Shown here one piece after another: positions 1,169 through 31,105 of a stretch of DNA of 33,731 bases. The notes below the pieces were generated by a model, which did no database searches, had not been told where the DNA came from, and worked only from the letters and a program-made list of their open reading frames with translations. The stretch comes from Bacteroidales bacterium (lineage in GTDB: Bacteria; Bacteroidota; Bacteroidia; Bacteroidales; UBA10428), in the NCBI GenBank assembly GCA_020354785.1, contig CP070654.1:2474274-2508004 (forward strand), given 5' to 3'. Both the position numbers and the translations under genes were made by a program. Positions within the stretch are counted from its first letter, which is position 1; each line of letters starts with the position of its first letter.

Positions 1169-1343
1169 ATACCTGAATTATGTTTATATTGTCTCACCAT
1201 TGAAAGCTCTCATTCCTGATTTAATACCTAGCTAAAATATTTTATTTGACTAAATAATAATTATTTAATAAAATAGACTTATAAAAGAATTATATTTATT
1301 AAACTTTATTTGCAAATCTATGTGAAGTAAGTTAATATTGCAA

Positions 1344-1511: not shown

Positions 1512-4500
1512 ATGAAAAAAACACTTATTATTTTGACACTGATCTTTTTTATCAGTAGTCAGTTACTTGCCCAGCTTGAAATTGGAGGGCAGGTAAAGAA
1601 TGTATCCGGAGAGCCTATACCGGGGGTGAATATCATAATTAAGGGTACCTTGCAGGGAACAGTTACCGATATAGATGGTAATTACTCCCTTTCCGGGGTG
1701 CCGGAAGGCGGAATCCTGGTTTTCTCATATGTGGGCATGTTAAGTGAGGAAGTCAATGTCGGAAACCAGACACGGATTGATCTAACAATGGTGGAGGATA
1801 TTCTTGATATGGAGGGAGTTGTAGTTATTGGATACGGAATGGTGAAAAAAAGGGATTTGACAGGTTCGGTAGCCTCGGTTAAAACAAATGATATAGTGAA
1901 GGCCCCTACCCGTAATCCCCTGGAGGCTATCCAGGGAATGGTGCCGGGAGTTGACATTACCAGGAATTCCGGAACTGCAGGTTCTGGTGCTAATATTGTA
2001 ATTCGTGGTAACAGGTCAATTCACGGCAGTAACAGTCCTTTATTTATTATAGACGGTATTCAGGGAAGTAGTTTCGGGGATCAGGGTGAGACGGTTGAAG
2101 ATCAGGGAAGTGACCTGATAGATTTGAATTCAAATGACATTGAATCAATAGAAGTTTTAAAAGATGCATCAGCGACGGCCATCTATGGTTCACAGGGAGC
2201 AAACGGTGTAGTAATTATTACAACAAAGAAAGGAGCAAGTGGTAAGACAAGGGTTTCTTACAATGGTTATTACGGGATAAACGGGTTAACACAATATCCA
2301 AAAGTCCGGCTTGGTGATGATTATATAGAGATGAGAAGAGAAGCTTATCGTGCAGTTGGCCAGTGGAACGATACAGTGGATGATCCGGAAGATTATTCCA
2401 GGTTATTTCCAAACGGGGATGAGAGGGCAGCTGTTGATTCAGGACAGTGGATTGACTGGCCTGATTTATTGTTTAGAAACGGAACACAGCAAAATCATCA
2501 GTTATCTGTAAGCGGCGGGACAGAAAAAACAAAATCCTATTTTTCAGTTGGTTATTATAAAGAGGAAGGTGTAGTTAGAATGGATGATATGACCCGTTAT
2601 AATGCCCGTTTAAATGTGGATCATATTGTTAATAAATGGATTGAGACCGGTATGAAAGCACAGCTCACATATTATGATCAGAACAGAAGAAAAGATCCTC
2701 TGTCAAAGTCAACCTCAACCACACCTTTGGGTGTTCCTTATGATGAGTATGGTAATATTAATTTATACCCGGTAGCAGGAAGCAGTTCAACCATAAGTCT
2801 GATGACAGATGAGCGTCCTGATATTGCAAAAGATAATACCGTATCAACTAATGTGTTGATTAACGGCTATCTTGATCTGACTCCGGTTAAAGGTCTTACA
2901 TTCAGATCTAACCTTGGTGTAAGTCTGGGTTATAAAAGAAGAGGCATTTACAATGCTGCTACTTCACTGAGCCAGAAAGACCTGAGGTACCCCTCAGCTT
3001 CAATGACCAATGATAATACCAGATTTGTCAACTGGGATAATATACTGACATATTCCGGAGAAGCAGGCGATCATTCATTTACTATTACAGCTATTACAAG
3101 TTATACGCAAAGTGACTATGATGAAGTTTATGCTTCAGGGAACAACCAGGTACTTTCTTCCCAGCTTTATTATAATTTAGGTGCTACAGACGTTGGTGAC
3201 AGGTCTATAACCTCCAGATATGTCGGTACCAGGACTATGTCTTATGCAGGAAGGATCAACTACAGTTACAGGGGTAAATATTTATTAACGCTAACGGAAC
3301 GTTTTGACGGAGCCTCGAGACTAGCCCCCGGTAACCAGTGGGATCATTTTCCTTCAGTAGCAGTTGCCTGGAGAATTAGCGATGAAGGTTTTATGGAGGC
3401 TGTTGAATCTGTTAGCAGCCTTAAGTTAAGACTCAGCTATGGAATAGCAGGGAACTCAGGTATCACTCCCTATGGCACACAAAGCAGTATTTCATACAAA
3501 GCAATGGGATTTGGAGATGAACCGGCTGCTGCCTATGAAATTAATCTTGAAAGAGATATGGTGGGCAATAGTGCCTTAGGATGGGAAAAATCGGCAACAA
3601 TAAACACCGGACTTGATTTAGCTATGTTCAGAAACAGGTTAAGTACTACAGTAGATATATACAGTACTAAAACAACAGATATTCTGCTTGAAAGATCACT
3701 ACCCCAATCCACAGGTGTTCCTAAAGTCTATCAAAATATCGGTAGTACCTTAAACAGGGGGATTGAACTCTCCATTAACTCGGTCAACGTTCATACCAGT
3801 AATTTCAAATGGACCTCTACATTTACTTTTGCCAGAAACAAGGAAGAAATTACAGATTTAATTGAAGGCGAGGATATTATTGATGAGATTGGAAATTCCC
3901 TGATTATCGGGCAGCCAATACATTCATTTTATACATGGGAAAAGCTGGGAATATGGCAACTTGGTGAAGAAGAAGAGGCCGCCCAGTTAACAGGTCCCAT
4001 AACCTTTGAACCCGGTGATATAAAACTGGCCAATCTTAATAATGATACTACAATAGATGCCTATGACAGAACATGTATTGGTGCCGCAGTCCCTGACTGG
4101 GTAGGCGGTCTGCAGAATACTTTTTCCTATAAATCATTAGAACTGAGTATTTATTTATTTGCTCGCTGGGGCCAGATGATAAATGCGGAATTTTTAGGGA
4201 GATATAACCCTAACGGTAGAGGAAATGGTCCTGCAAGTCATGATTACTGGACACCTGATAATCCTACTAATGACTTTCCAAGACCTACCAGAGACGCTGC
4301 CAACATAACTTATTATTATGGTTATCAGACTCTGAATTATGTAGACGGATCATATTTTAAGATAAAAAATATAACTCTCAGTTACACATTACCAGGAAGT
4401 CTTACTAAAAAAGTGCTGATAGACAAGCTCAGAATATATGCGACTGCATCAAATCTGTTTACATATACCAAAAACCATTTGATAAGAGAGTACGATCCTG

Positions 4501-4568
4501 AGAGAGGAGGCTCGGAAAAATTTCCTTTGAGCAAACAAATTGTTTTCGGGCTTAATATAGACTTCTAA
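1512..4568 (+). CDS. SusC/RagA-family TonB-dependent outer-membrane transporter (PUL 1)
   Basis: 1018 aa. Signal peptide, then an N-terminal carboxypeptidase-regulatory-like domain (GQVKNVSGEPIPGVNIIIKGT..GTVTDIDGNYSL), the SusC hallmark VVIGYGMVKKRDLTGSVASV, the plug motif IESIEVLKDASATAIYGSQGANGVVIITTKKG, and a C-terminal beta-barrel ending in F. A SusD gene follows directly. Confidence 0.95.
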   Translation: MKKTLIILTLIFFISSQLLAQLEIGGQVKNVSGEPIPGVNIIIKGTLQGTVTDIDGNYSLSGVPEGGILVFSYVGMLSEEVNVGNQTRIDLTMVEDILDMEGVVVIGYGMVKKRDLTGSVASVKTNDIVKAPTRNPLEAIQGMVPGVDITRNSGTAGSGANIVIRGNRSIHGSNSPLFIIDGIQGSSFGDQGETVEDQGSDLIDLNSNDIESIEVLKDASATAIYGSQGANGVVIITTKKGASGKTRVSYNGYYGINGLTQYPKVRLGDDYIEMRREAYRAVGQWNDTVDDPEDYSRLFPNGDERAAVDSGQWIDWPDLLFRNGTQQNHQLSVSGGTEKTKSYFSVGYYKEEGVVRMDDMTRYNARLNVDHIVNKWIETGMKAQLTYYDQNRRKDPLSKSTSTTPLGVPYDEYGNINLYPVAGSSSTISLMTDERPDIAKDNTVSTNVLINGYLDLTPVKGLTFRSNLGVSLGYKRRGIYNAATSLSQKDLRYPSASMTNDNTRFVNWDNILTYSGEAGDHSFTITAITSYTQSDYDEVYASGNNQVLSSQLYYNLGATDVGDRSITSRYVGTRTMSYAGRINYSYRGKYLLTLTERFDGASRLAPGNQWDHFPSVAVAWRISDEGFMEAVESVSSLKLRLSYGIAGNSGITPYGTQSSISYKAMGFGDEPAAAYEINLERDMVGNSALGWEKSATINTGLDLAMFRNRLSTTVDIYSTKTTDILLERSLPQSTGVPKVYQNIGSTLNRGIELSINSVNVHTSNFKWTSTFTFARNKEEITDLIEGEDIIDEIGNSLIIGQPIHSFYTWEKLGIWQLGEEEEAAQLTGPITFEPGDIKLANLNNDTTIDAYDRTCIGAAVPDWVGGLQNTFSYKSLELSIYLFARWGQMINAEFLGRYNPNGRGNGPASHDYWTPDNPTNDFPRPTRDAANITYYYGYQTLNYVDGSYFKIKNITLSYTLPGSLTKKVLIDKLRIYATASNLFTYTKNHLIREYDPERGGSEKFPLSKQIVFGLNIDF

Positions 4569-4600: not shown

Positions 4601-6352
4601 ATGAAGAATATAAAATATATAATTCAGTCCTGCATGACAGTTTTGTTTATAGCAAGTATGTCATCATGCGAAATAGAAGAATATAATCCCTCAGGAGTTA
4701 CAGCAGATGCTATATGGAGTACACCTGAAGGTTTTCAGACTCTTGTTAATATTGCCTATTCGGACCAGCGTACCTGGTATGGAAAAACAGATGGGCTTTT
4801 TATGTCTGAAACAGGGACAGATCTGTGGTTTAATAAGGAAAAAGACGGCTGGGCAAAAGAAATATCCAAATACGAGGATTTTACTCCTTCAACAGGCAAT
4901 CCGAACAAAGCAACATGGCGTGAAATGAATAAAGCACTGAATTTATGCAATGCGGGTATCGGACGTATAGGTGATGTAGATTTTCCGTCTGAAGAAGTAC
5001 GAAACCAGAAAGAAGGTGAACTGCGTTTTTTAAGAGCATTCTATCTCTGGCATATTGTTGAGACATGGGGAGGTGTAAGTTTAAGAACTGAAGAAACAAA
5101 AGAGCCTGTCCTGACTGCTGTCAGGAGTCAGGTTGAAGATTTCTACGAAGTAATAATGGGAGATCTCGAGTTTGCAAAAGACAATTTACCTCTTGACTAT
5201 GGAGATGAATACAGCCGGGCGACCGTAAAGTCGGCTCTTGGACTCCTTGCAAGGGTATATCTTACAAAGGCTTATCAATTAACAGGTGATCAGGCACTGT
5301 CATATTATACAATGGCCAGGGATATGGCCAAAGAAGTAATAGACAGGCAGGAAGAATTTAATGTTTCATTATGGAATAACTATGCTGATTTATGGAATCC
5401 GAACAACAACAAGGAAAATAAAGAAGCTTTATATGTAGTTAGTAACTCTACCAATACTGCTATAAATTATGACCTTAATGCAAACCGTTTGCACCTGTGG
5501 TTTATTACGGGTTACAGCGGTAAACCGGGTATGCAGCTAAGTATGGAGTACGGTGTGGATGACAGGAGGCGCCTGATGCCAACCTTGCATGTTCTGGATC
5601 TGTTTGATGAGAATATGGACTCACGCTATGAGAATTCTTTCCAGGAAGTATGGCTTTGTAATGACAGTGCTGATATACCGGTATGGACAGCTGAAGAAAT
5701 AGCTGCCGGCGGACTGGATCCGGGTTTAATTGACCAGAATAAATTCGAGTACGGAGATACTGCAATGTATATAACCAGGAAAAGCATTTCTGATGAGAAT
5801 ACACTTGGTTATCTTGTTATTGACAGGGACAGCGTTTATGATACAGCGGGAAATGGAGCCATTCACACGGGAGACGATTATGTGCAGCTTACAAAATACC
5901 TGGACCCGGTAACAAGAACGGATGCCACTTCAAGACCCGGATACCAGGATGTTATTGTAATAAGGCTTGCAGAAATGTATCTTATTGCTGCTGAAGCGGA
6001 ATTCAAGTTAAACAACAGAGCCCAGGCAGCAACTTATATTAATGTTCTCAGGACAAGAGCTGCTAAAAAAACACCTATTGATTACACTCAGGATATGCAG
6101 GTTACTGCCGGTGATATTTCTGTTGAGTTTATCCTTGATGAGAGAGGCAGAGAACTTTGCGGTGAGCATATAAGATGGTTTGATATAAAGAGAGTATTCA
6201 GCAATGATCCTGCGGGTTTTGTTAGCTATATAAAAACCAGAAATCCGGATATTGTTGAACTTAAGGAACATCATATATTGCGGCCGGTTCCGCAAACCGA
6301 GATAGATGCCCTGCTTAATGGTGAAGAATTTGGACAGAATCCGGGTTATTAG
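4601..6352 (+). CDS. SusD/RagB-family outer-membrane glycan-binding lipoprotein (PUL 1)
   Basis: 583 aa. Lipoprotein signal (..FIASMSSC), 32 nt downstream of SusC. SusD-type motifs are present: RAFYLWHIVETWGGV, VIVIRLAEMYLIAAEA, ERGRELCGEHIRWFDIKR, and a C-terminal ..NPGY. Confidence 0.9.
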   Translation: MKNIKYIIQSCMTVLFIASMSSCEIEEYNPSGVTADAIWSTPEGFQTLVNIAYSDQRTWYGKTDGLFMSETGTDLWFNKEKDGWAKEISKYEDFTPSTGNPNKATWREMNKALNLCNAGIGRIGDVDFPSEEVRNQKEGELRFLRAFYLWHIVETWGGVSLRTEETKEPVLTAVRSQVEDFYEVIMGDLEFAKDNLPLDYGDEYSRATVKSALGLLARVYLTKAYQLTGDQALSYYTMARDMAKEVIDRQEEFNVSLWNNYADLWNPNNNKENKEALYVVSNSTNTAINYDLNANRLHLWFITGYSGKPGMQLSMEYGVDDRRRLMPTLHVLDLFDENMDSRYENSFQEVWLCNDSADIPVWTAEEIAAGGLDPGLIDQNKFEYGDTAMYITRKSISDENTLGYLVIDRDSVYDTAGNGAIHTGDDYVQLTKYLDPVTRTDATSRPGYQDVIVIRLAEMYLIAAEAEFKLNNRAQAATYINVLRTRAAKKTPIDYTQDMQVTAGDISVEFILDERGRELCGEHIRWFDIKRVFSNDPAGFVSYIKTRNPDIVELKEHHILRPVPQTEIDALLNGEEFGQNPGY

Positions 6353-6365
6353 TTGGAGGGACGGT

Positions 6366-8642
6366 ATGAGAATATTATTAAGACTGCCGTTATATGTATC
6401 ATTAATTTTTACACTAATTTCCTGTAAAAAAGAACAGGTTACAGTTATTATATCCGACAGTTCTTCTGTCAGAACATTATACGGAATCGAGAGACTTGCC
6501 GGTTCTTTGTCTGAATCAGGTTACAGGGTTCAACAAGTAAATGATGATGAGTTACCTGTCAGGGGAATTTCAATTGTAATAGGCAGGCTTAAGGATACAC
6601 TAATTCATGATGTCTTTGACAAAACAAAAATCCAGGTTGATACCTTTCCCGGAAAAGAAGGATTTGTAATAAAAAGAAATAAGGACATAATAGTTGTAGC
6701 AGGTGCCGATGCCTCAGGGACCTTATACGGTTGTCTTGAATTATCCGGCATTGTAGAAGATCAGGGTAAACTTCCTGATAATGCTGACATTACTGACCAG
6801 CCAGAAATGACAATGCGCGGCACCTGTATAGGTTTGCAAAAAACAACATATTTGCCGGGCAGGAGAGTATATGAGTATCCATATACTCCTGAGAATTTTC
6901 CATGGTTTTATGACAGGGAATTATGGATTGAATACCTGGATATGCTTGTTGAGAACAGGTTTAATTCTCTATACTTATGGAATGGCCATCCGTTTGCTTC
7001 ACTGGTAAGATTGGAAGACTATCCTTATGCAGTGGAGGTAGACGAGGAGACTTTTAAAAAGAATGAGGAAATTTTCAGTTTTTTAACGGAAGAGGCTGAC
7101 AGGCGTGGTATTTATGTCATTCAAATGTTTTATAATATTATCGTCTCAAAACCTTTTGCTGAAAAACACGGACTTAAAACACAGGACAGGAACCGGCCGA
7201 TTATTCCTGTTATTGCTGATTATACCCGCAAGTCGATTGCTGCATTTGTGAAGAAATATCCTAATGTCGGATTAATGGTTGCCCTGGGTGAAGCAATTGG
7301 TACTGACCTGGATGATGTAAAATGGTTTACCGGCACTATTATTCCCGGTGTAAAAGACGGCCTGGCTGCCCTTGGCAGAACCGACGAACCGCCTATTATA
7401 CTCAGAGGGCACGATACAAAAGCTGAATTGGTCATAAATGAAGCCCTTCCAATATATAAGAATTTATATACAACACACAAATACAACGGGGAATCACTGA
7501 CGACCTATGAACCCAGAGGTTCATGGGCTCAGATTCACCAGGATATGAGTAAACTGGGCTCAGTGCATATATCCAATGTTCATATTCTGGCAAACCTTGA
7601 ACCTTTCAGATATGGTTCACCTGATTTTATTCAAAAATCAGTAAAGGCAATGCACGATATTCAGGGAGCGAACGGGCTTCATCTTTATCCGCAGTCTTCT
7701 TACTGGGACTGGCCTTACACAGCTGATAAAACCTCCCCCAGGTTGTTACAAGTTGATCGTGACTGGATCTGGTACAGAACATGGGGCAGATATGCATGGA
7801 ATTGCAGACATAACCGTAATGATGAGATTATGTACTGGACAGATGAATTAGGGAAATATTATGGATGCGGTAAATATGGAAGAGATATCCTGAATGCTTA
7901 TGAACAGACCGGTGAAATTGCCCCGAAACTATTACGGCGATTCGGTATTTCAGACGGCAACAGGCAGACATTACTGCTGGGAATGTTTATGAGCCAGCTT
8001 GTTAATCCTTATAAATGGAGGGTTTACAGCAATTTCTATACTTCCAGCGGCCCTGAGGGTGAAATAATTATTGATTACGCAAAGAAAGAATGGGAGAAAG
8101 AACCGCATATTGGTGAAACTCCCGTGCAGATTATTAGAGAGGTGGTTCAGCATGGAAAAACTGCAGTTGAATCAATAGAAAAAGCAGCACCAAATGTAAA
8201 AACCAATAAGGAAGAATTCTCCAGATTAAAAAATGACATATACTGCTACCGGGCTCTGGCAAATTTCTTTTCGGAAAAAGTTAATGCAGCTCTGTTAGTG
8301 TCGGGGTACAGGTACTCAAAAGATATTTCCGATCTGGATAAAGCTGTTATATTCCTTGAAAAAAGCATTGAGTATTATGAACAGGTGGTAGAACTGACAA
8401 GAGAAAGTTATTTATACGCCAACAGTATGCAAACCAGGCAAAGAAGAATCCCTATTGGCGGGGATGAAGGGAAAAACAAAACCTGGGCTGAGCTATTGGA
8501 TCATTACAGGACAGAACTGGTTAATTTTAAGAGGAATATTCAGCTTCTGAAATCATCAGGTGCCGGCCAGACGGTTTCTACCTACGATGCAGGCCTGGGA
8601 GGAGATGAAAATATTGAGACTATCGACTGGTTGTTTTATTAA
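6366..8642 (+). CDS. Lipoprotein, putative glycoside hydrolase of unassigned family (N-terminal GH20b/GH67N-like alpha/beta domain plus putative TIM barrel plus helical C-terminal region)
   Basis: The track ORF starts at 6306 and overlaps the SusD stop. The internal ATG at 6366 gives a clean lipoprotein signal, MRILLRLPLYVSLIFTLISCKK. The segment GKEGFVIKRNKDIIVVAGADASGTLYGCLEL resembles the N-terminal domain that precedes the catalytic barrel in the GH20/GH67/GH115 type of enzyme. It is followed by DQPEMTMRGT...YLDMLVENRFNSLYLWNGHPF, which is barrel-like. I could not recognise a family signature. Confidence 0.4.
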   Translation: MRILLRLPLYVSLIFTLISCKKEQVTVIISDSSSVRTLYGIERLAGSLSESGYRVQQVNDDELPVRGISIVIGRLKDTLIHDVFDKTKIQVDTFPGKEGFVIKRNKDIIVVAGADASGTLYGCLELSGIVEDQGKLPDNADITDQPEMTMRGTCIGLQKTTYLPGRRVYEYPYTPENFPWFYDRELWIEYLDMLVENRFNSLYLWNGHPFASLVRLEDYPYAVEVDEETFKKNEEIFSFLTEEADRRGIYVIQMFYNIIVSKPFAEKHGLKTQDRNRPIIPVIADYTRKSIAAFVKKYPNVGLMVALGEAIGTDLDDVKWFTGTIIPGVKDGLAALGRTDEPPIILRGHDTKAELVINEALPIYKNLYTTHKYNGESLTTYEPRGSWAQIHQDMSKLGSVHISNVHILANLEPFRYGSPDFIQKSVKAMHDIQGANGLHLYPQSSYWDWPYTADKTSPRLLQVDRDWIWYRTWGRYAWNCRHNRNDEIMYWTDELGKYYGCGKYGRDILNAYEQTGEIAPKLLRRFGISDGNRQTLLLGMFMSQLVNPYKWRVYSNFYTSSGPEGEIIIDYAKKEWEKEPHIGETPVQIIREVVQHGKTAVESIEKAAPNVKTNKEEFSRLKNDIYCYRALANFFSEKVNAALLVSGYRYSKDISDLDKAVIFLEKSIEYYEQVVELTRESYLYANSMQTRQRRIPIGGDEGKNKTWAELLDHYRTELVNFKRNIQLLKSSGAGQTVSTYDAGLGGDENIETIDWLFY

Positions 8643-8671
8643 AAGTAAAGAATAGATAATCAGATAATTAT

Positions 8672-9763
8672 ATGAAATACCATTACAATAAATTTCTTGG
8701 TAACACTTTATTGCCTGTTGATATTGTGCTGGCACCTGAATGGTGGAATAAAAACGAAAAAATAATATTTGACAGGGATTTCTTCTTTAATCCAGCCAAA
8801 AGAGTAGAGGAAGAACAGAAAATGGAGAAAGTACTATATGAACGCTGGGGCAGATACGGACTAGGACAACATAAAGATGAGAAACGGCCTGAGATTGGTG
8901 CTGTGCATCTTGCTGCAGGCTTTTTACTTTCTGAAATGCTTGGGTGCAAAGTTGATTATACTGAAGGGCATCCTCCCCAGGTTATTACCGCTAACAGAGA
9001 AGATCTCTCGCTGAATGTAGAGTATGTATTTAAATCTCCGGCATTTATTAGTATTACGAACATGTGGGATAGTATGAAGAAAAAGTACGGATATCTGACA
9101 GGAGATATTAACTGGGGAGGTGTTCTGAACCTGGCCATGGATCTCAGGGGACAACATATTTTAATGGATATGATGATGAATCCTCATGAAGTGAAATTAT
9201 ACTTTAAAAAAATTGCCGGAATTATTACAAAATTTACTTCAGCCATGATGAACGAAACAGGAACGACATCAATTTCAGTAAACCGCGCAGTAAGACATTT
9301 TAAAAAGCCGGTCTTACTTCATTCAGAATGTACATATACAATGATTTCTGCAGAAGACTACGATAACTTTTTGCTTGATATTGATATAGAATGGAGCAGG
9401 CAACGTCCTTTTGGGATTCACTATTGCGGCCCTGATCCGCACCGCATGGCTGAGAGTTATGCAAAAATTCCACACCTTGATTTTCTGGATCTTGGATGGG
9501 GTGGTGATGTGAAAATATTAAGGGAGTACCTGCCCGATACATTCTTCAATATCAGACTCAGTCCTGCTGAAGTTATAAGTCAGAGTAATGAAGAGATTAG
9601 AGAGACGATTGTCCGCCTGGTAAAAGACTCTGATAATCCATTTCTTACAGGAATTTGCTGTATAAATATGGATGATCTTGTTAGCGATGATAAAATAGAT
9701 ACCATTTTCGAAACAGTTGAAAGCTTAAGGTCAGAATATCTGAGAACCGATGAAAAAGTTTGA
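8672..9763 (+). CDS. Cytoplasmic URO-D/MtaA-like (uroporphyrinogen decarboxylase / methyltransferase superfamily) protein with a putative Zn site, paralog 1
   Basis: 363 aa with no signal peptide. Superfamily-like blocks are present: GDINWGGVLNLAMDLRG...MMMNPHEVKLYFKKIAGIITKF, then TMISAEDYDNFLL, then the His-x-Cys-Gly motif IHYCG (H250/C252, nt 9419-9427) and a CC pair 77-78 residues later (C329/C330, nt 9656-9661). This spacing resembles the H-x-C...C zinc site of MtaA/MetE-type alkyltransferases. The assignment is by eye only. Confidence 0.55.
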   Translation: MKYHYNKFLGNTLLPVDIVLAPEWWNKNEKIIFDRDFFFNPAKRVEEEQKMEKVLYERWGRYGLGQHKDEKRPEIGAVHLAAGFLLSEMLGCKVDYTEGHPPQVITANREDLSLNVEYVFKSPAFISITNMWDSMKKKYGYLTGDINWGGVLNLAMDLRGQHILMDMMMNPHEVKLYFKKIAGIITKFTSAMMNETGTTSISVNRAVRHFKKPVLLHSECTYTMISAEDYDNFLLDIDIEWSRQRPFGIHYCGPDPHRMAESYAKIPHLDFLDLGWGGDVKILREYLPDTFFNIRLSPAEVISQSNEEIRETIVRLVKDSDNPFLTGICCINMDDLVSDDKIDTIFETVESLRSEYLRTDEKV

Positions 9764-10874
9764 CAGCCGGCTTACTGATGTACAGGCAACAAAAGTTATA
9801 CCTGTACGGCCTGATGAATTTGATTTTGATGAGTATTCTGAATATGCTGATAAATTAAATGTCAGATGTAAAACATTCTGGACGGCGGATTCCGGTGTCA
9901 TGGTATACAGGCGTATGCGTGTTGGTGAGTGTTTCTCATACGGATGCCGTAATATGAAGCAATCACTGGAATATCAGTTGGGTGCCCTGAAGATGAGCCT
10001 TAATTTCAAGGCTGACATTCCGAATTTTTTGGAACCATGGTATGGTACAGGAACCATTGCAAGTGCTTTTGGAGGAGAATATGTCTGGATCGCAGGGAAT
10101 GCACCTGCAATGAAACCTGCGTTTGACTCTATAGACGACTTACTGGAATATACGCCAAAGGAGGTAAAACATACTGGCATAGGCCGGCATACTCTTGATA
10201 TGATAGATTATTTTATGGAAAAGACAGGGGGCAAGCTTCCTGTGTCACTAACTGACTCACAGTCGCCATTGAATATTGCCGGTTATCTTCTTCCGCTGGA
10301 TAAGTTTTTTACATATATGATAATGGTGCCTGAAAAGGTGATCCGGCTTCTTGAGATTATTGCAAATCTGTCAGTTGACTTCAACAATGAACAGGTCAAA
10401 CGAATTGGTAATGCTTTGGTGCTTCCCGGACATGGATTTGCATCTTCAACAAAATGGAGTGGATTGGGAATGAGTGATGATAATGCTATCATGATATCAC
10501 CTGAGCAGTATCTTGAGATCGTTAATCCTTCAGCCGGAAAGATTTGCCGTTTTTTTGGAGGTTATGGTTTTCATTCATGCGGCGACTGGTCAGGATGGAT
10601 TGATTCTGTGCTAAATATCAAAGATATACGAATGGCTGACGGAGCTTTTTCAAATGAAACTGATCCAGATGCAATAAAAAACCTTGAGGTATACCATCGT
10701 TTTTCAGGAACAGGAATTGTACTTAACGCCCGGATTGTCGGCGATATCCACACAATTGAGCAGCAGGTCAGACGACTGTGGGCCCCTGGAATGAAACTTG
10801 TAGTTGTCACTTATTGTGCAACCTGTGATGAACAGAACAGGGCCTATGATTTAATTCACCGGATTTGTAGCTGA
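9750..10874 (+). CDS. Cytoplasmic URO-D/MtaA-like protein with a putative Zn site, paralog 2
   Basis: 374 aa with no signal peptide. Its start overlaps the upstream stop by 14 nt, which suggests translational coupling. Blocks: SLTDSQSPLNIAGYL...VPEKVIRLLEIIANLSVDF, then GMSDDNAIMISPEQYLEIVNP, then FHSCG (H275/C277, nt 10572-10580), and C356/C359 located 79 and 82 residues after C277. The architecture matches the upstream paralog. Confidence 0.55.
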   Translation: MKKFDSRLTDVQATKVIPVRPDEFDFDEYSEYADKLNVRCKTFWTADSGVMVYRRMRVGECFSYGCRNMKQSLEYQLGALKMSLNFKADIPNFLEPWYGTGTIASAFGGEYVWIAGNAPAMKPAFDSIDDLLEYTPKEVKHTGIGRHTLDMIDYFMEKTGGKLPVSLTDSQSPLNIAGYLLPLDKFFTYMIMVPEKVIRLLEIIANLSVDFNNEQVKRIGNALVLPGHGFASSTKWSGLGMSDDNAIMISPEQYLEIVNPSAGKICRFFGGYGFHSCGDWSGWIDSVLNIKDIRMADGAFSNETDPDAIKNLEVYHRFSGTGIVLNARIVGDIHTIEQQVRRLWAPGMKLVVVTYCATCDEQNRAYDLIHRICS

Positions 10875-10884: not shown

Positions 10885-12156
10885 TTGATGAAGCAAAAGA
10901 TGCTTAATTCTAAAATAGGAAATTACAGGTGGCGTGTCGTTGCACTGTTGTTTTTTGCTACAACAATTAACTATATTGACAGGCAGGTACTGGGTATCCT
11001 GGCTCCTCTTCTGCAGGATTTATTTAAGTGGTCGGAATCTGATTACAGTTTGATAATAATGTCTTTTCAGGCAGCTTATGCTATTGGTTTAATATCTATG
11101 GGAGGATTGCTGGATAAAATAGGAACAAAGGCAGGCTATATTATTGCGATTACTATATGGAGTACAGCCGGTATGTTTCATGCAGCAGCAAGGAGTGTCA
11201 TTTCATTCGTCATTGCCAGGTTTACTTTAGGCATCGGTGAATCGGCTAATTTCCCTGCTGCAGTTAAAACAGTTGCCGAATGGTTTCCCAAACGCGAACG
11301 TGCATTAGCTACAGGTATTTTCAACTCTGGTACTAACATAGGGGCAATACTTACACCCCTGATTATTCCCTTTATAGCTTTAAAATGGGGTTGGCAGTGG
11401 GCCTTTATCATCACAGGAGCGCTGGGTTTTGTATGGCTGGTATTCTGGTGGATGTTCTATAAAAGGCCGGAAAAAACACCCCGGCTCAGACCTGGTGAGA
11501 GAAAATATATCTTGCAGGATGGGGAGGAAATATCAAAAAGAATACCATGGATTAAGATATTTCCCCACAAACAAACACTGGGTATATGCCTTGCACGCTT
11601 TGTAACCGATCCTGTATGGTGGTTCTTTTTATACTGGCTTCCCAAATTTTTAAATACTAATCATGATATTGATCTTAGTAATATCGGATTACCTTTAATA
11701 ATAATATATTTAATATCTGATGGAGGAGCAATAACAGGAGGATGGTTATCCTCATTTTTCATCAGAAGAGGCAAAGATCCCGTAGCTGCACGTAAACTTA
11801 CAATTCTGTTGCTTGCTCTGCTGGTTGTTCCAATCTTTTTTGCATCTGTAACATCACACATATGGATGGCTGTTGCATTGATATCAATGGCAACTTTTGC
11901 ACACCAGGGATATGCCTCCAACATTTTTACTATAGTTTCTGATGTTTATCCCAAGGACGCAGTGGGTTCTATGATCGGACTATCAGGTTTTGCAGGTGCA
12001 GTAGGCGGAGTAGTATTTTCTTTCCTGGTTGGTTTGATACTTGAACTTACAGGCAGTTACTATATTGTATTTGGAATAGCAAGTATAGCATACCTTCTTT
12101 GCTGGATTGCACTGAAACTTTTTGTCCCTGACAATAAAACAATTATTATTGCCTAA
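10885..12156 (+). CDS. MFS transporter, anion:cation symporter subfamily, hexuronate transporter (ExuT)-like
   Basis: 423 aa with about 12 hydrophobic helices. The N-terminal block RWRVVALLFFATTINYIDRQVLGILAPLL...SDYSLIIMSFQAAYAIGLISMGGLLDKIGTKAGY closely parallels the E. coli ExuT pattern S.II.AY.AAY....Q...G..LD..GTK.GY, as I recall it. Confidence 0.8.
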   Translation: MMKQKMLNSKIGNYRWRVVALLFFATTINYIDRQVLGILAPLLQDLFKWSESDYSLIIMSFQAAYAIGLISMGGLLDKIGTKAGYIIAITIWSTAGMFHAAARSVISFVIARFTLGIGESANFPAAVKTVAEWFPKRERALATGIFNSGTNIGAILTPLIIPFIALKWGWQWAFIITGALGFVWLVFWWMFYKRPEKTPRLRPGERKYILQDGEEISKRIPWIKIFPHKQTLGICLARFVTDPVWWFFLYWLPKFLNTNHDIDLSNIGLPLIIIYLISDGGAITGGWLSSFFIRRGKDPVAARKLTILLLALLVVPIFFASVTSHIWMAVALISMATFAHQGYASNIFTIVSDVYPKDAVGSMIGLSGFAGAVGGVVFSFLVGLILELTGSYYIVFGIASIAYLLCWIALKLFVPDNKTIIIA

Positions 12157-12207: not shown

Positions 12208-14658
12208 ATGAAACGACTATTTGTTATACTATTAAAGGTGGTATTGATTGTTAACATTTCATATACCCGGAACAATAAGGAACTTAAGCTCTGGTACAAC
12301 CGCCCTGCAAATAACTGGAACGAGGCACTTCCTGTTGGAAACGGCCGTTTAGGGGCTATGGTATTCGGGAATCCCGAAAGGGAGCATTTGCAATTAAACG
12401 AGGAAACTGTCTGGGCTGGCGGACCACACACCAATGTAAATCCTGAATCAAAACCATACATTGCTGAAGTGCGATCTCTTTTGTTTAAAGGAGAGTATAA
12501 AAAAGCCCAGGAGATAGCAGATGAATATATTAAAAGTCATGTTAACGGAATGCCCTACCAGCCTGCCGGTGATGTATACCTTCTATTTCCCGGTCACAGT
12601 AACTTTTCTTATTATTACCGTGGTCTGGATATAGGAAAGGCCGTGGCATCAGTATCATATACAGTAAATAATGTACAATACAAAAGGGAAATTATTTCAT
12701 CATTTACAGATCAGGTGGTCATTATCCGTTTAACAGCCAGTGAACCCGGAATGATCAGCTGCATTATTTCTGCCGGAAGCTTGCAAAAATATGAGACTGA
12801 AATTCACGATGACAAAATAGTAGTTAATGCTATTACAACAGATCATGAGGGAATAAAGGGGCAGGTTAGACTTAACACTATAATAAAGCCAGTAGTTAGT
12901 AACGGACTCATTGAAAAAGATGATACCAGCCTGGTTATAAGAAATGCCGATAAGGCTACGATTTATATTTCCATAGGCACAAATTTTATTAATTACAAAG
13001 ATATTAGTGCCAATTCTGCAGATAAGGCTGAGAATTACCTGACAGGAGCTTTACAAAAGGACTATAATATTGCACTGAAAGATCATATTGCTTTTTACAG
13101 GCAGTATTTTGACAGGGTGGATATCGACCTGGGTACAACCGATTCTGTTAATAATCCTACTGATGTCAGGTTGAAACAATATAAGCACGGAAACGATCCC
13201 CAGCTTGCAGCGCTTTACTTTCAATTTGGCCGGTACCTCCTGATCAGCAGCTCGCAGCCTGGCGGCCAGCCGGCTAACCTTCAGGGAATATGGAATCCGC
13301 TGCTTAGACCTCCATGGGAAAGCAAGTATACACTGAACATTAATTGTGAAATGAATTACTGGCCTGCCGAGGTAACAAACCTGACTGAACTTAACGATCC
13401 TTTATTCAGTATGATTAATGATTTATCGATAACCGGCCGGGAAAGCGCAAGCAAACTGTATGACGCACCCGGGTGGGTAGTGCATCATAATACGGATATA
13501 TGGCGCGTAACAGGTATTTTTGACAGGGCTTATTTCGGATTATGGCAAACGGGCAGTGCATGGCTTAGCCAGCATCTGTGGCAGCATTACCTGTTCACCG
13601 GTGATACAGATTTTCTTAAAAATATTTACCAGGTAATGAAGAGTGCTGCTGAATTTTATGTTGATGAACTTGTTGAGGAACCCGAAACCAGGTATTTAGT
13701 TATAGGTCCGTCGAATTCCCCGGAAAACAACTACCTGGGTTTGGCATCTGCAAGCGTGGGAACAACTATGGATAACCAGCTGATATTCGATTTGTTTTCA
13801 AATGTTATCCGATCAGCAGAAATACTTGAGCTTGATAGTGCCTTTGCAGACAGGTTGCGTGAAAAACGGGCAAGGCTGGCACCAATGCATATAGGCCAAT
13901 ACAGTCAGTTGCAGGAGTGGCTGTATGACTGGGACGATACTACCGATCATCACCGCCATGTTTCGCATCTCTACGGATTGTATCCGAGCAACCAGATATC
14001 CCCCGAAAGGTCTCCAGAACTTTTCCAGGCGGCAAAAAACTCTTTACTTTACAGGGGTGATGAGTCAACCGGCTGGTCTATGGGATGGAAGGTAAACCTT
14101 TGGGCACGGTTATTAGACGGTAATCATGCCTATAAACTCATTACTGATCAGCTTACACCTTCTGTTCAGCCGGACGGATCTGAAAGAGGAGGTACTTACC
14201 TGAACCTGCTTGATGCTCATCCCCCATTTCAAATTGACGGCAATTTTGGCTGTACTGCAGGTATTGCTGAAATGCTCCTGCAGAGCCATGACGGATATAT
14301 TTTTGTATTACCTGCATTACCTGACAGCTGGCCTCGTGGTGAAGTAAAAGGACTGGTAGCCAGGGGCGGATATGAAATTGATATGAGCTGGGAAAAAGGA
14401 AAGGTTAAAACCCTTGCAATTCACTCAAGGCTGGGAGGCAATTGCAGGATAAGATTATTCCAGGAAATTGAATCAACCTGTGATGCAAAACTTAATAAAG
14501 CAAATGGCGCCAACACAAATCCCTTATATTCTGTAAATGAAATAAAGAAACCGGTAATATCAGCCAAAGCAAAAATTACTAAACCTGAATTAAAGGAAAC
14601 ACAAGTATATGATTTCATGACCGAATCCGGGAAAACCTATACTTTTGTAATTAAATAG
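12208..14658 (+). CDS. Glycoside hydrolase family 95 (alpha-L-fucosidase / alpha-L-galactosidase type)
   Basis: 816 aa with a signal peptide. GH95 hallmarks are present: LWYNRPANNWNEALPVGNGRLGAMVFG, LNEETVWAGGP, PANLQGIWN, YTLNINCEMNYWPAEVTNL, GWVVHHNTDIWR, SPENN, HRHVSHLYGLYP, STGWSMGWKVNLWARL, and PPFQIDGNFGCTAGIAEMLLQS. Confidence 0.92.
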   Translation: MKRLFVILLKVVLIVNISYTRNNKELKLWYNRPANNWNEALPVGNGRLGAMVFGNPEREHLQLNEETVWAGGPHTNVNPESKPYIAEVRSLLFKGEYKKAQEIADEYIKSHVNGMPYQPAGDVYLLFPGHSNFSYYYRGLDIGKAVASVSYTVNNVQYKREIISSFTDQVVIIRLTASEPGMISCIISAGSLQKYETEIHDDKIVVNAITTDHEGIKGQVRLNTIIKPVVSNGLIEKDDTSLVIRNADKATIYISIGTNFINYKDISANSADKAENYLTGALQKDYNIALKDHIAFYRQYFDRVDIDLGTTDSVNNPTDVRLKQYKHGNDPQLAALYFQFGRYLLISSSQPGGQPANLQGIWNPLLRPPWESKYTLNINCEMNYWPAEVTNLTELNDPLFSMINDLSITGRESASKLYDAPGWVVHHNTDIWRVTGIFDRAYFGLWQTGSAWLSQHLWQHYLFTGDTDFLKNIYQVMKSAAEFYVDELVEEPETRYLVIGPSNSPENNYLGLASASVGTTMDNQLIFDLFSNVIRSAEILELDSAFADRLREKRARLAPMHIGQYSQLQEWLYDWDDTTDHHRHVSHLYGLYPSNQISPERSPELFQAAKNSLLYRGDESTGWSMGWKVNLWARLLDGNHAYKLITDQLTPSVQPDGSERGGTYLNLLDAHPPFQIDGNFGCTAGIAEMLLQSHDGYIFVLPALPDSWPRGEVKGLVARGGYEIDMSWEKGKVKTLAIHSRLGGNCRIRLFQEIESTCDAKLNKANGANTNPLYSVNEIKKPVISAKAKITKPELKETQVYDFMTESGKTYTFVIK

Positions 14659-14699: not shown

Positions 14700-17600
14700 A
14701 TGATAGATTCATGGTTTATATCAAAGGGAATAATTCGATTCACAATTGCTCTGTTATATTTATCAGCTATGGCAGACTGTTATTCCGGGGAAGGTGATCG
14801 CACCGATATACCGTTGGATGAAAACTGGCGGACTACAGCAAATGATACAAATAAGTATGCATTCAGGGGATTTGAGCAACCGGATTTTGATGATTCTGGC
14901 TGGGAACTGGTAGATATACCTCATAACTGGGACAGGTATGAAGGTTACAGAAGGTTGTTACATGGGAATCGCCACGGTTATGCATGGTACAGAAGGCATT
15001 TCACAATAAACCTCCGGGGAAATGACAGGAGATATTTCCTGTGGTTTGAAGGGGCCGGATCATATACCACAATCTGGGTTAACGGCAGGAAAGCAGGTTA
15101 TCATGCCGGCGGCAGAACATCTTTTACAGTTGATATTACTGATTTTGTTCATGCTGATAACAGGCCAAATCTGTTAGCAGTGCGTACCGACCATCCGTCA
15201 TCGATAAGAGATCTGCCGTGGGTTTGCGGAGGTTGCTCAGAAGAGTGGGGTTTTTCAGAGGGTTCCCAGCCTATGGGTATTTTCAGACCGGTTCATTTAA
15301 TTATTACCGGGGAGATTCGTATTGAACCTTATGGAGTACATATATGGAATGATACAACAGTATCCGATACCTCCGCCCTGTTAAATATTGAAATCGAAGT
15401 AAAAAATTATAGTAAAATAGAAAGAACTGTTAACCTTATAAATCAATTAATATACCATGATGGTACAGCCATCGCTGAAGTAAGGGCAAGAGCTAAGATA
15501 CCTGCCGATACTAATATTATTATTAGACATGAACCGATAAAAGTTGTTAATCCGCGTTTATGGTCACCCGAAGATCCTTTTCTCTATGTAGTGGAATCAG
15601 AAGTAATTGAAAATAATAAAGTAATTGATTTTACAAGCACCCGTTATGGTATAAGGTGGATTAGGTGGCCCATAGGTGAAGCATCAGGTTCAGGACAGTT
15701 TCTTCTTAACGGCAAACCGGTTTTTATAAACGGAACTGCAGAGTACGAACATATGATGGGCCAGAGTCATGCTTTCAGCTATGAGCAGATAAAATCCCGT
15801 ATAAGCCAGGTGAAGGGAGCAGGCTTTAATGCTTTCAGAGATGCTCATCAACCTCATAATTTGCAATACAGAAGGTTTCTGGATCTTTATGGTCTTCTCT
15901 GGTGGCCCCAGTTTGCAGCTCATATTTGGTTCGACAATCCCGAATTCAGGAGCAATTTTAAGAAATTGCTTAGGGACTGGGTGAAAGAACGCCGTAACAG
16001 TCCTTCGGTGATACTGTGGGGTCTTGAAAATGAAAGCACCCTTCCTGCTGATTTTGCCCGCGAATGTACTGACATTATCAGGGAGCTTGATCCGACTGCA
16101 TCTGTACAAAGAAAAGTGACTACATGTAATGGAGGTAAAGGAACAGACTGGAATGTTATTCAAAACTGGTCAGGTACATATGCGGGAGATCCTTATGCCT
16201 ATGCAGATGATATTCAGCGCGAGTTGCTGAATGGAGAATACGGCGCCTGGAGAAGTATTGATTTTCATACAGAGGGAACTTTTGTACAGGATGCACCGCT
16301 CAGCGAAGACCGTATGACCCAGCTAATGGAAATGAAGATCAGGCTGGCTGAATCGGTTAGAGATAAATGTTGCGGCCAGTTTCACTGGCTTTTCAACTCA
16401 CACGAAAATCCGGGAAGAACACAGAATGGGGAAGGAGTACGGGACTTCGACAGGGTGGGACCTGTCAATTACAAAGGATTGTTTTCATGCTGGGGAGAAC
16501 CCCTGGATGTATATTATATGTACCGCGCTAATTATGCCCCGAAAGAAAAGGAACCAATGGTATATATAGTATCACATACCTGGCCTGACAGGTGGATATC
16601 ACCTGGTAAAAAAGACGGTATTATAGTATATTCCAATTGTGAAGAAGTTGAGCTTTTCAATGATGTAAAAACACTTTCTCTAGGCAGACGAACACACCGG
16701 GGTATTGGTACACATTTTCAATGGGACGGGGTAGAGGTAAATTATAATATACTCTATGCAGTTGGGTATGTAAATGGTAAAGCAGTGGCAGAGGACTTAA
16801 TTGTCCTGAATCATCTATCGGAATCACCAGGTTTTTCTGAATTAATTGAAGAAAGTGGAGAACCTGTTATTTCGCCGGTGAAGGACTATAACTACCTGTA
16901 CCGTGTTAATTGCGGCGGACCGGAATACAAGGATAAATATGGTAATACATGGATGGGCGATTGCCATAAAACAAGTGATACAACATGGGGAAGCAAATCA
17001 TGGACAGATGAATATCCGGAAATGCCTGCTTTTTATGCAAGCCAGCGCAGGACTTTTGATCCTATACTAAACACTGCTGACCGGAAGCTTTTCCAGACCT
17101 TTCGTTATGGTCGTGACAAACTGAGATATGAATTTCCTGTTCCTGATGGTGATTATATAGTTGAATTATATTTTATTGAACCCTGGTATGGTACGGGAGG
17201 CAGTATGGATTGCCGGGGCTGGCGGCTTTTTGATGTAGCAGTCAACAACGACATATTCTTAAAAAATCTGGATATATGGAGGGCCGCAGGACACGACCAT
17301 GTACTTAAGAAGCAAGTCAGGGTGAATATTACAGGCGGGCAACTTTCCATATCATTCCCTTATGTTGCATCAGGGCAGGCAGTAATATCAGCAATAGCTA
17401 TTGCCATTGCGGACCATAGTATAAAACCGGCTCCAAGGTCAGAATCCCTCATTAATAACTTTGCACTCACCGATAAGGAAGTATCAGGTAAATGGTCTGT
17501 CCGGTCATGGATGGACACAGGCGAGAAGCAATATACGGATGATACAGCAGTTTTCAGCTCTCTTCCTTCATACCTTTACGGAGCAGAGTGGATAAGAACA

Positions 17601-18331: not shown

Positions 18332-18361
18332 CCCGGTAGTGCTGTCATATGCATTACCGGG
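18332..18361. terminator. Bidirectional rho-independent terminator between convergent genes
   Basis: Stem of CCCGGTAGTGC (18332-18342) paired with GCATTACCGGG (18351-18361): 11 bp with one G-U pair and an 8-nt loop. It is flanked by an A-run upstream (AATAAAAAA) and a T-rich tract downstream (TATTTCTTTTT), so it can terminate both strands. Confidence 0.8.
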
Positions 18362-20964: not shown

Positions 20965-20985
20965 TACGAATAAACCGTTAAGCAA

Positions 20986-24297: not shown

Positions 24298-24437
24298 CTT
24301 TTATTATTTATAATTATTGCTGTAATTGAAATAAGTTAATATATAATTTACAAAGAATATTTAAAAACTCCAACAGAAGATCTGTCCTTCGCGTTCCGGT
24401 TTATTGCAAATATAATTATTATGCATGGAATAAAATA

Positions 24438-24477
24438 TTTTGTATCATTTTGTAATTTTACCGTCTATAATATAAAA
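24438..24477 (+). promoter_or_regulatory. Putative ECF (SigZ-type) promoter upstream of the sigma factor gene: TTTGTATCATTT-N10-CCGTCTATAATATAAAA
   Basis: The same bipartite motif recurs at 25068-25106 upstream of arsM: 11 of 12 identity in the upstream box, identical 10-nt spacing, and 17 of 17 identity in the downstream box. The downstream box contains the CGTC element typical of the ECF -10 region. It ends 24 nt before the ATG. Confidence 0.55.
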
Positions 24478-24500
24478 AATCTTCTAAAAAGAGTTGAAAT

Positions 24501-25052: not shown

Positions 25053-25067
25053 AATTGAATTATCAGT

Positions 25068-25106
25068 TTTGCATCATTTATTCCCCTTCCCGTCTATAAT
25101 ATAAAA
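25068..25106 (+). promoter_or_regulatory. Putative ECF (SigZ-type) promoter upstream of arsM: TTTGCATCATTT-N10-CCGTCTATAATATAAAA
   Basis: Second copy of the motif at 24438-24477. It ends 28 nt before the arsM ATG. Confidence 0.55.
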
Positions 25107-25134
25107 GGTACTTAATAATAAAAAAACAATATAA

Positions 25135-25956: not shown

Positions 25957-25975
25957 CCCAACTCTCACAAAATAC

Positions 25976-29520: not shown

Positions 29521-29555
29521 TTAGCAAACTAATTATTATTAACCTGTGAAAAAAA

Positions 29556-31094: not shown

Positions 31095-31105
31095 ATTTAT
31101 TTAAT

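Follow-up and report, generated by a model that had tools for sequence, protein, structure and literature searches.

The stretch of DNA considered here (33,731 nt, 33.7 kb, analysed over its whole length and referred to as the window) lies on contig CP070654.1 of a Bacteroidales bacterium and carries a glycan-utilisation operon in which two neighbouring genes, designated P1 and P2, encode proteins predicted to share the fold of uroporphyrinogen decarboxylase (URO-D) and of the methyltransferase MtaA. The operon shows the layout of a polysaccharide utilisation locus (PUL): the genes for SusC, SusD, a glycoside hydrolase (GH) of family GH138, P1, P2, a major facilitator superfamily (MFS) importer, GH95, and GH2 are all located on the forward strand and are separated by gaps of no more than about 50 nt. 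All features are collated in Table 1, together with genes from related loci (L numbers) referred to below. Residue numbers are those of the window proteins.

Table 1. Coordinates of the operon features in the window and of selected genes in related loci.
Feature	Location	Strand	Basis or remark
SusC-like TonB-dependent transporter, first operon gene	window 1512..4568	+	Pfam Plug and CarboxypepD_reg
SusD-like glycan-binding lipoprotein	window 4601..6352	+	Pfam SusD_RagB and SusD-like_3
GH138-type α-D-galacturonidase lipoprotein	window 6366..8642	+	NCBIfam NF049878; lipobox
P1, divergent protein of predicted URO-D/MtaA fold, 363 aa	window 8672..9763	+	AlphaFold2 model, Foldseek, hhalign
P2, protein of predicted URO-D/MtaA fold, 374 aa	window 9750..10874	+	Pfam URO-D, AlphaFold2 model, Foldseek, hhalign
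Anion:cation-symporter-type MFS importer (ExuT/DgoT-like)	window 10885..12156	+	Pfam MFS_1 4e-65; TIGR00893 5e-79
GH95 (α-L-fucosidase/α-L-galactosidase family)	window 12208..14658	+	Pfam Glyco_hydro_95_cat 3e-178
GH2 with malectin domain, last operon gene	window 14700..18299	+	Pfam GH2 domains and Malectin
Terminator-like hairpin 3' of the GH2 gene	window 18332..18361	+	11-bp stem, 7 GC pairs; consensus match only
P2	L136:7530-8678		50% identical to window P2
MFS importer	L136:8669-9964		57% identical to window MFS
Corrinoid protein	L136:9965-10672		
MtaA-like methyltransferase	L136:10690-11688		
Activation protein	L136:11691-12389		Met_synt_B12-like
SemiSWEET-like (MtN3/PQ-loop) gene	L092:20736-20999		
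f13, example	L009:18552-19625		further examples in about 20 of L098-L177
f13, example	L092:6240-7304		
f13, example	L096:4005-4988	-	
UROD345 and RhaT, example	L094:6683-7720 and 8145-9206		further examples in 19 of L098-L177

The genes flanking P1 and P2 are those named in the initial annotation, but the product encoded directly upstream, described there as a GH-like lipoprotein, can be assigned more precisely. Its open reading frame is listed from position 6306 (probable start, MRILL...LISC, at 6366), and the product scored 1310 bits (cut-off 1300) against NCBIfam model NF049878 (alpha-d-galacturonidase). This model is taken here to represent GH138, the family founded by BT0997, which removes α-linked galacturonic acid (GalA) from side chain A of the pectin rhamnogalacturonan-II (RG-II). 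Because the upstream lipoprotein is a GH138 α-galacturonidase and is accompanied by GH95 and GH2, the operon has the appearance of a PUL directed at side chain A of RG-II, which is rich in uronic acids, rather than of a generic PUL. The MFS protein is 32.6% identical to Escherichia coli ExuT over 90% of its length. The same gene order was found in Maribellus and others, and the SusC slot is likewise filled in syntenic loci (e.g., L001). An Rfam scan of the window returned no cobalamin riboswitch and no other family.

The tandem arrangement of P1 and P2 agrees exactly with the initial annotation, the two frames overlapping by 14 nt (ATG of P2 at 9750, TGA of P1 at 9761–9763). This overlap is not conserved; the estimated distance from P1 stop to P2 start varies from −17 to +241 nt and lies mostly within about 15 nt. 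On inspection by eye the N-termini of both proteins are unlike signal peptides, as had been annotated. P2 matched the Pfam family URO-D (PF01208) with 45.1 bits (cut-off 23.9, E 9.2e-12). P1 matched no Pfam family, and some of its 70%-identical orthologues carry a precomputed PF01208 match. PF01717 (Meth_synt_2) was matched by neither protein.

AlphaFold2 models were built on family alignments (P1: pLDDT 82.8, pTM 0.86; P2: pLDDT 86.5, pTM 0.88) and were searched with Foldseek. MtaA was the best match in both cases (4ay7, E 1.5e-10, for P1; 4ay8/4ay7, E 5e-11, for P2), followed by some 20 UROD structures (top matches E 1e-6 to 5e-11, TM 0.5–0.7), with MetE structures far down both lists (E 1e-3 to 1e-4). 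According to these models both proteins possess a UROD-type (β/α)8 barrel, so that of the URO-D/MtaA/MetE superfamily proposed initially the first two members are borne out for both proteins and the relation to MetE is marginal. The two had also been called paralogues, which appears to hold at the profile level only: a direct BLASTP comparison gave E 0.38, whereas the two families were aligned by hhalign with a probability of 84% (E 7e-6) and with their H-x-C-G motifs in register.

Against the MtaA/MtbA/CmuA models (TIGR01463, NF040654), P2 scored 25.8, 25.0, and 16.9 bits (cut-offs 244, 400, and 235, respectively) and P1 12.4 bits, below cut-off; the hemE equivalog model (TIGR01464) was matched by neither even at E 10. 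The probability for the C-terminal domain of E. coli MetE in hhalign was below 2%, and alignments to the single E. coli MetE and HemE sequences were uninformative. Only chance matches were obtained when P1, P2, and narrow family profiles were searched against PDB chain sequences, and short motif-bearing fragments of the two proteins gave no usable mapping onto NCBIfam. A broad profile was required to reach MtaA and UROD. For this purpose 62 sequences of the wider P2 clade (20–46% identity) were combined into profile A3, which aligned to MtaA (4ay7) with E 3e-13 and to the canonical MtaA-like family (A4) with a probability of 99.2% (E 1e-19, hhalign).

The putative metal motif of P1 consists of H250-x-C252 (IHYCG, nt 9419–9427) and C329–C330 (nt 9656–9661), and that of P2 of H275-x-C277 (FHSCG, nt 10572–10580) and C356 (nt 10815–10817), with 77 residues between C252 and C329 and 79 between C277 and C356. 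In the profile alignment HSCG of P2 fell on LHICGN of MtaA. With family A4, H225/C227 (LHNCGN) were placed on H275/C277, and C307 (SSGC) lay one column off C356; a weak alignment of A4 to P1 (E 0.007) placed C307 on C329 and HNC on HYC. At the level of sequence profiles, homology of the H-x-C motif to the zinc ligands of MtaA, as suggested in the initial annotation, is supported. In the P2 model H275 and C277 are located at the end of a strand (272–275), and C356 follows another (349–354).

Conservation of the motif is far beyond chance. H250, C252, C329, and C330 were retained in all 52 true P1 orthologues, H275 and C277 in 81 of 81 P2 orthologues, and C356 in 79 of these. The "CATC" that had been named as part of the P2 signature is no motif, since C359 is replaced by Pro in 73 of the 81 sequences. 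Near-invariant residues of the wider P2 clade are limited to H275, C277, G278, D169, and D244; R54, R55, R57, and R328 are invariant among P2 orthologues only, which suggests an anionic small-molecule substrate. P1 is also invariant at H79, C92, H217, C220, and H257 in its 52 orthologues. As a separate observation, its five invariant Cys (92, 220, 252, 329, and 330) and several His (79, 217, 250, and 257) exceed the needs of one MtaA-type site, and a second metal site or cluster is conceivable from the sequence.

Relatives of each protein formed about 2,000 clusters (90% identity) at E ≤ 0.001, and a P2 relative was encoded by 329 species (one genome per species). Synteny was evaluated in 81 P2 loci. 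The best 80 of the matches comprise Prolixibacteraceae, Paludibacter, and other Bacteroidales (60–82% identity), four more distant metagenome-assembled genomes of Bacteroidota (53–54%), and Planctomycetota (Sedimentisphaerales, Phycisphaerae, and Pirellulales; 53–56%). The hosts belong mostly to anaerobic or facultatively anaerobic groups. Among Bacteroidota loci with enough flanking sequence, P1 was found directly upstream of P2 in 45 of 62 and the ExuT-like MFS directly downstream in 49 of 65; the corresponding counts for Planctomycetota were 0/6 and 0/9. A 370-aa protein upstream of P2 in L055 was considered as P1 and rejected because the motif is absent.

Recurrent neighbours in the 81 loci were GH138 (34), GH2-malectin (34), GH78-like (20), and GH141 (18), with GH28 (12), GH31 (10), and GH95 (7) occurring more rarely. 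In Planctomycetota P2 was located, without P1, beside SSF or TRAP carboxylate transporters, an α/β-hydrolase esterase, GH28, and the tagaturonate epimerase UxaE. P2 lies near both UxaC and UxaE in L030, and in L023 and L039 P1 and P2 are separated by a CE8 pectin methylesterase gene. With GH138, GH28, UxaE, UxaC, and importers of the anion:cation-symporter MFS, TRAP, or SSF type around P2, the common denominator of its loci is an imported uronate-type acid sugar. The association with glycan loci and with the MFS importer seen in the window is conserved; P2 occurs without P1 in Planctomycetota and in L136, and an obligate pair is therefore not general.

The initial annotation named as its main weakness that neither a corrinoid protein nor an activase is encoded in the window. 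This is true of the window and is largely resolved outside it, by L136 and by the gene strings of Paludibacter type. The window and the 81 loci were searched in six-frame translation with the B12 domain of MetH (phmmer) and the pattern DxHxxG...SxL...GG; matches were obtained in L043 and L061 only, and none in the window or the other loci. The Paludibacter-type loci L092, L043, L061, and L047 form one co-oriented string with gaps of no more than about 285 nt. It begins with GH78, RhaM, GH31, a 354-aa URO-D-like protein of a separate family (f13), and an SSF transporter, continues with a 222-aa corrinoid protein, a 332-aa MtaA-like methyltransferase, and a 233-aa activation protein, and ends with GH141, GH78-like, GH127, P1, P2, a SemiSWEET-like gene, GH138, and two GH2. 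The 222-aa protein contains PF02607 and PF02310 with the DxHxxG, SxL, and GG motifs, and matched methyltransferase-cognate corrinoid proteins with 2e-47 to 2e-55; the 332-aa protein is a canonical MtaA-like methyltransferase (Pfam URO-D 2.6e-56; MtaA/CmuA 1e-45), and the 233-aa protein carries the MetH activation domain (Met_synt_B12). The same module also accompanies GH141, GH31, f13, and SSF in Microbacter, Dysgonomonas, and Alistipes.

A metagenome scan seeded with the corrinoid protein yielded 80 further loci (L098–L177). The string (RhaM-)GH31-f13-SSF, optionally followed by a further URO-D-like protein (UROD345) with RhaT, and then by the genes for corrinoid protein, methyltransferase, and activation protein was present in about 20 of the 80, each URO-D-like paralogue standing beside its own transporter; in L098 the Paludibacter arrangement is repeated as far as P1-P2. 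The most telling case for a link between P2 and corrinoid chemistry is L136 (57% GC), where P2, the MFS importer, the corrinoid protein, the MtaA-like methyltransferase, and the activation protein form a tight gene string (Table 1), with a pterin-binding methyltransferase and an ETF subunit encoded divergently upstream. Two 473-aa proteins without Pfam match, in L136 and L158, proved unrelated.

Known corrinoid-dependent systems have four parts: a substrate-specific methyltransferase for the first step (MT I), the corrinoid protein, another methyltransferase for the second step (MT II), and an activator. MT I of O-demethylase and chloromethane systems has the UroD fold, in some cases with zinc (PMC13222342; PMC10418091). 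When the orthologous loci were examined for these four components, MT I-like proteins and the corrinoid protein were present, a pterin-binding methyltransferase was found in L136 only and, fused to an activation domain, in L158, and no ATP-dependent activator was seen, the Met_synt_B12-like protein standing in for it.

P2, in Bacteroidota together with its divergent partner P1, is proposed to be a cytoplasmic methyltransferase that depends on zinc and a corrinoid and removes the methyl group from a methylated uronate after import; the substrate is probably the GalA methyl ether of RG-II. P2/P1 would form the substrate-specific arm of the demethylation system. The probability of this assignment is estimated at roughly 0.55. 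The observed basis consists of the fold, the homology and conservation of the motif, the conserved gene neighbourhood, and the corrinoid modules that share an operon with orthologues. Removal of methyl ethers from sugars had been suggested in the initial annotation and now has strong support from genomic context, while the chemistry itself remains a proposal: the bound metal would be zinc, the methyl group would move from the sugar to the corrinoid, P1 could act as partner in a heteromer or provide a second regiospecificity, and the corrinoid module would be encoded elsewhere in the source genome. RG-II contains three methyl-etherified sugars (methyl-fucose, methyl-xylose, and methyl-GalA), of which methyl-GalA is located in side chain A (PMC8218411), and a mutant of Bacteroides thetaiotaomicron in BT0997 (GH138) accumulates methylated side-chain-A oligosaccharides (bioRxiv 2026.03.13.711244).

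In the proposed sequence of events, an oligosaccharide of RG-II side-chain-A type would be imported by the SusC/D pair and trimmed in the periplasm by GH138, GH95, and GH2 with release of uronic acids and L-galactose. The ExuT-like MFS would then import a methyl-etherified uronate, most likely O-methyl-galacturonate of RG-II or, alternatively, 4-O-methyl-glucuronate. On binding of the sugar by P2/P1, the invariant Arg residues may hold the carboxylate and the His/Cys/Cys metal site may polarise the O–CH3 bond, with transfer of the methyl group to a corrinoid protein, encoded separately, in its Co(I) state. From there another methyltransferase would pass it on to a thiol (MtaA-like enzyme) or to tetrahydrofolate (pterin-binding enzyme), oxidised cobalamin would be rescued by the MetH-type activation protein, and the demethylated hexuronate would enter the ordinary uronate pathway through UxaC/UxaE-type catabolism.

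Several findings weigh against this assignment. The 33.7-kb window encodes no corrinoid protein, no MtaA-like methyltransferase, no activation protein, and no cobalamin riboswitch, and one of the three proteins was found within 10 kb of P2 in only about 4 of the 80 genome loci. No B12 component was found in the Prolixibacteraceae loci, which are closest to the window, even just past the f13-SSF genes (L054), and in Planctomycetota P2 stands alone, with neither P1 nor a corrinoid protein nearby. In L043, L047, and L061 P2 is followed by the short SemiSWEET-like (MtN3/PQ-loop) gene and there is no acid-sugar MFS, which gives no simple fit with an acidic substrate. No curated family is matched significantly by the sequence of P1, which is linked to MtaA through its predicted fold and through weak profile alignments. 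C356 is replaced by Ser or Ala in two P2 orthologues, and the distal Cys, specific to P2 orthologues, is not conserved across the wider clade.

The function of P1 and P2 might instead lie in the second step. As MT II enzymes of the MtaA kind they would transfer the methyl group from a methyl-corrinoid protein to a zinc-activated thiol, the sugar-specific first step being left to other URO-D-like paralogues (f13, UROD345, or the 332-aa MtaA-like protein). A His/Cys/Cys site is the hallmark of thiol-activating MtaA, and f13, which is encoded beside the corrinoid protein and always with GH31 and SSF, lacks the Cys (H-L-D-G). A canonical MtaA-like protein is, however, already present in every corrinoid module, and P2 is accompanied by an importer of its own and by glycosidases that release uronates, which is what a substrate-specific enzyme would lead one to expect; its ortholog-specific invariant Arg residues likewise suggest an anionic small molecule as substrate. 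This placement is considered improbable. No better chance is given to zinc chemistry that dispenses with a B12 protein, the methyl group of a sugar ether or ester being passed directly to a thiol (e.g., homocysteine, as in MetE) or some other thiol-alkyl transfer taking place. It would account for the lack of a corrinoid protein within 10 kb in the majority of P1-P2 loci, among them the window and every Planctomycetota locus, and for sister-clade members in sulfatase and ABC-sugar loci without corrinoid proteins, and MetE structures are among the weaker Foldseek matches. Yet Meth_synt_2 was not matched, hhalign against E. coli MetE found nothing, MtaA is the best match in both structure and profile, and P2 is placed directly with the corrinoid protein in L136 and in the Paludibacter operons; no precedent is known, moreover, for a thiolate that displaces a sugar alkoxide directly.

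A reaction on the imported uronate that does not involve methyl groups, either a step preceding UxaE (aldose-ketose isomerisation or epimerisation) or a decarboxylation in the manner of URO-D, appears rather unlikely. The order carboxylate transporter, P2, UxaE in Planctomycetota, with no UxaC nearby, would suit an isomerase, and the fold is common to a true decarboxylase. Replacement of the uronate isomerase was nevertheless given less weight because UxaC and P2 occur together in L030 and because the corrinoid operons, with their MtaA-like and activation genes, would be left unexplained; Cys-rich zinc sites typify alkyl transfer and not sugar isomerases. For the uronate decarboxylation offered as an alternative in the initial annotation, nothing in its favour was found: such a reaction normally needs NAD-dependent oxidation, no partner of this kind is conserved here, and the hemE model was not matched. 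That P1 and P2 are ordinary HemE or other tetrapyrrole enzymes that happen to sit in a PUL, as the database name "uroporphyrinogen decarboxylase family protein" and the Pfam URO-D match of P2 might suggest, is so improbable that a HemE function was rejected, in line with the initial annotation. There is no equivalog match, structure-based identity to UROD is 11–15%, glycosidases and sugar importers are conserved neighbours in two phyla, and the H-x-C motif is present, HemE itself having no metal site.

As candidates for sugar demethylation, P1 and P2 resemble several known systems in part. With MtaA/MtbA/CmuA (Methanosarcina MtaA, 4ay7) they share the predicted barrel, the H-x-C-G on the zinc ligands, and a distal Cys at the same spacing; a cognate corrinoid protein is adjacent in some orthologous loci (L136, L092, L043, L061, and L098) and absent from the window and most others. 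They differ in scores far below the family cut-offs, in a structure-based identity of 11–14%, in their position in glycan-utilisation operons of Bacteroidota and Planctomycetota with a sugar-acid importer, and, for P2, in invariant TDxQSP, PGH, and SDD blocks and Arg residues that are not found in MtaA. Neither phylum is known to make coenzyme M. HemE/UROD has the fold and the PF01208 match of P2 in common with the pair, but not the metal-type His/Cys motif or the glycan context, which holds no haem-biosynthesis genes. The module beside the orthologues, composed of a B12-binding protein, a zinc thiol-methyltransferase-like protein, and a MetH-type activation domain, resembles a split MetH with a donor-binding barrel; its components are separate proteins, and the donor barrel is URO-D-like (P2, P1, or f13) instead of a pterin-binding domain. 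Homocysteine as methyl acceptor is a guess.

The O-demethylases and dehalogenases of acetogens (OdmABCD, Vdm, MtvABC, and CdmBCA) are multi-component systems with an MT I of UroD fold that is specific for the methyl donor, in some cases with zinc (PMC13222342), and they remove O-methyl groups without oxygen; the equivalent role of P1/P2 is a proposal. They are known to act on aryl methyl ethers, methanol, methylamines, and chloromethane and not on sugars, and they feed the Wood–Ljungdahl pathway and use an ATP-dependent activating enzyme, whereas the loci of P1/P2 type contain the small Met_synt_B12 protein, are embedded among SusC/D genes, and belong to fermentative glycan degraders. The P450 that demethylates 6-O-methyl-galactose in marine Bacteroidota is likewise encoded in PULs (for porphyran) and likewise would clear a sugar methyl ether for catabolism, but its fold and chemistry are wholly different, being dependent on O2 and releasing formaldehyde (PMC6292453, PMC9400963). 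In agreement with the initial annotation no P450 was found in the window, nor in related loci.

Further URO-D-like and corrinoid families were observed in glycan loci. Family f13, the third URO-D-like family (327–357 aa), has no Pfam match and shows H-L-D-G in place of H-x-C-G; it is always located between a GH31 α-xylosidase-like gene and an SSF transporter, and in Paludibacteraceae, Dysgonomonas, and Alistipes directly beside the module of corrinoid protein, MtaA-like methyltransferase, and activation protein, next to GH141. It is a candidate for a 2-O-methyl-xylose arm of the same system. UROD345 gave MtaA-type matches of 1e-15 to 1e-17. Its gene and that of a RhaT-family transporter regularly form a pair just upstream of the corrinoid gene, an arrangement that suggests a methylated 6-deoxyhexose as substrate. 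In PULs of xylan type a corrinoid gene directly follows GH10 (L158:1030-19796; also L150, L155–L161, L166, L169, L170, and L172). The order in L158 is SusC, SusD, surface glycan-binding protein, GH10, corrinoid protein, and a 490-aa fusion of a pterin-binding methyltransferase and a MetH activation domain, with a GH115 α-glucuronidase, an MFS_2 transporter, and a second GH10 nearby; no URO-D-like MT I was detected in this locus. The arrangement suggests that the module handles 4-O-methyl-glucuronate in a B12-dependent manner.

Taken more widely, anaerobic glycan degraders may possess a PUL-embedded network for B12-dependent O-demethylation of sugars, in which divergent methyltransferases of URO-D fold each have their own importer and releasing glycosidase; this picture is tentative and is held at somewhat less than even odds. 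P2/P1 with the ExuT-like MFS and GH138 or GH28 (the window pair) would serve methyl-uronates, f13 with SSF and the GH31 α-xylosidase-like enzyme beside GH141 would serve 2-O-methyl-xylose, UROD345 with RhaT a methylated 6-deoxyhexose, and the module of corrinoid protein and pterin-binding methyltransferase in GH10/GH115 xylan PULs 4-O-methyl-glucuronate. The arms would all converge on a single corrinoid protein, served by a single second methyltransferase (MtaA-like or pterin-binding) and by a reactivation protein of MetH type.

Sugars that carry methyl ethers occur widely in the walls of plants and algae (2-O-methyl-fucose, 2-O-methyl-xylose, and methyl-GalA in RG-II, and 4-O-methyl-glucuronic acid in xylan), and they block ordinary sugar catabolism. 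Ndeh et al. are said to have found in 2017 that B. thetaiotaomicron leaves the 2-O-methyl-xylose–fucose linkage of RG-II uncleaved. In the full-text literature searched, no connection of URO-D-like or corrinoid proteins with PULs or with the demethylation of sugars was found; the O2-dependent P450 route is the only sugar demethylation described there, and handling by anaerobes of gut, sediment, and digester is not described. The class of chemistry is already known; new are the class of substrate, the setting in the genome, the subfamilies of the proteins, and an activator of MetH type. If the proposal is true, it would provide an undescribed oxygen-free removal of methyl groups from plant sugars as counterpart of the P450 route, and would account for what becomes of the methylated sugars in RG-II and xylan. 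Carbohydrates would join aryl ethers and C1 compounds as substrates of B12-dependent methyltransferases, and the PUL toolkit would gain a class of enzymes that are not CAZymes. The system would also make fibre degradation B12-dependent with dietary-fibre use tied to cobamide availability in gut taxa (Alistipes and Dysgonomonas), and offer anaerobic demethylases for biomass processing. The P1-P2 pair of the window supplies concrete, abundant, and testable candidates.

Some variants of the P2 loci were recorded in addition. P0241 (L085:109-2283) is a 724-aa P1-P2 fusion with Ala at the distal Cys of the P2 half; it is located on one short contig (two samples) and may be an assembly or frameshift artefact. 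Adjoining GH138-P1-CE8-P2-MFS, the reverse strand of L023 (220-3838) encodes an esterase, a GTPase of the CobW/COG0523 family, which includes zinc metallochaperones, and a 539-aa protein in which a canonical URO-D/MtaA-like part is fused to a thioredoxin-like domain. In one Planctomycetota locus, a TauE/SafE-family anion exporter (L073:11207-11944) lies between P2 and UxaE, and its relation to export of a methylated sulfur product would be pure speculation. L086–L089 contain distant members of the HSCG clade (20–30% identity to P2), sometimes two per locus, with no corrinoid protein nearby and with sulfatases, ARMT1-like/DUF89 proteins, LacI regulators, and ABC sugar transporters as neighbours.

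Outside the operon, an open frame truncated by the left window edge (2–1177, reverse strand, divergent from SusC) is SSF-transporter-like, with 23% identity to the Paludibacter SSF. On the 3' side, positions 19732–22275 encode a 410-aa fusion of an aldo/keto reductase with a 4Fe-4S dicluster domain, and a protein with DUF6599 and F5/8 type C domains (429 aa). The region 22321–33682 appears to be a glycan locus in its own right. It encodes a GH5 carrying CBM30 and a type IX secretion system (T9SS) tail, a sigma factor of ECF type, a 273-aa SAM-dependent methyltransferase, and a Reg_prop/Y_Y_Y regulator that contains a GAF domain, and its minus strand holds another SusD/SusC pair, the second in the window.

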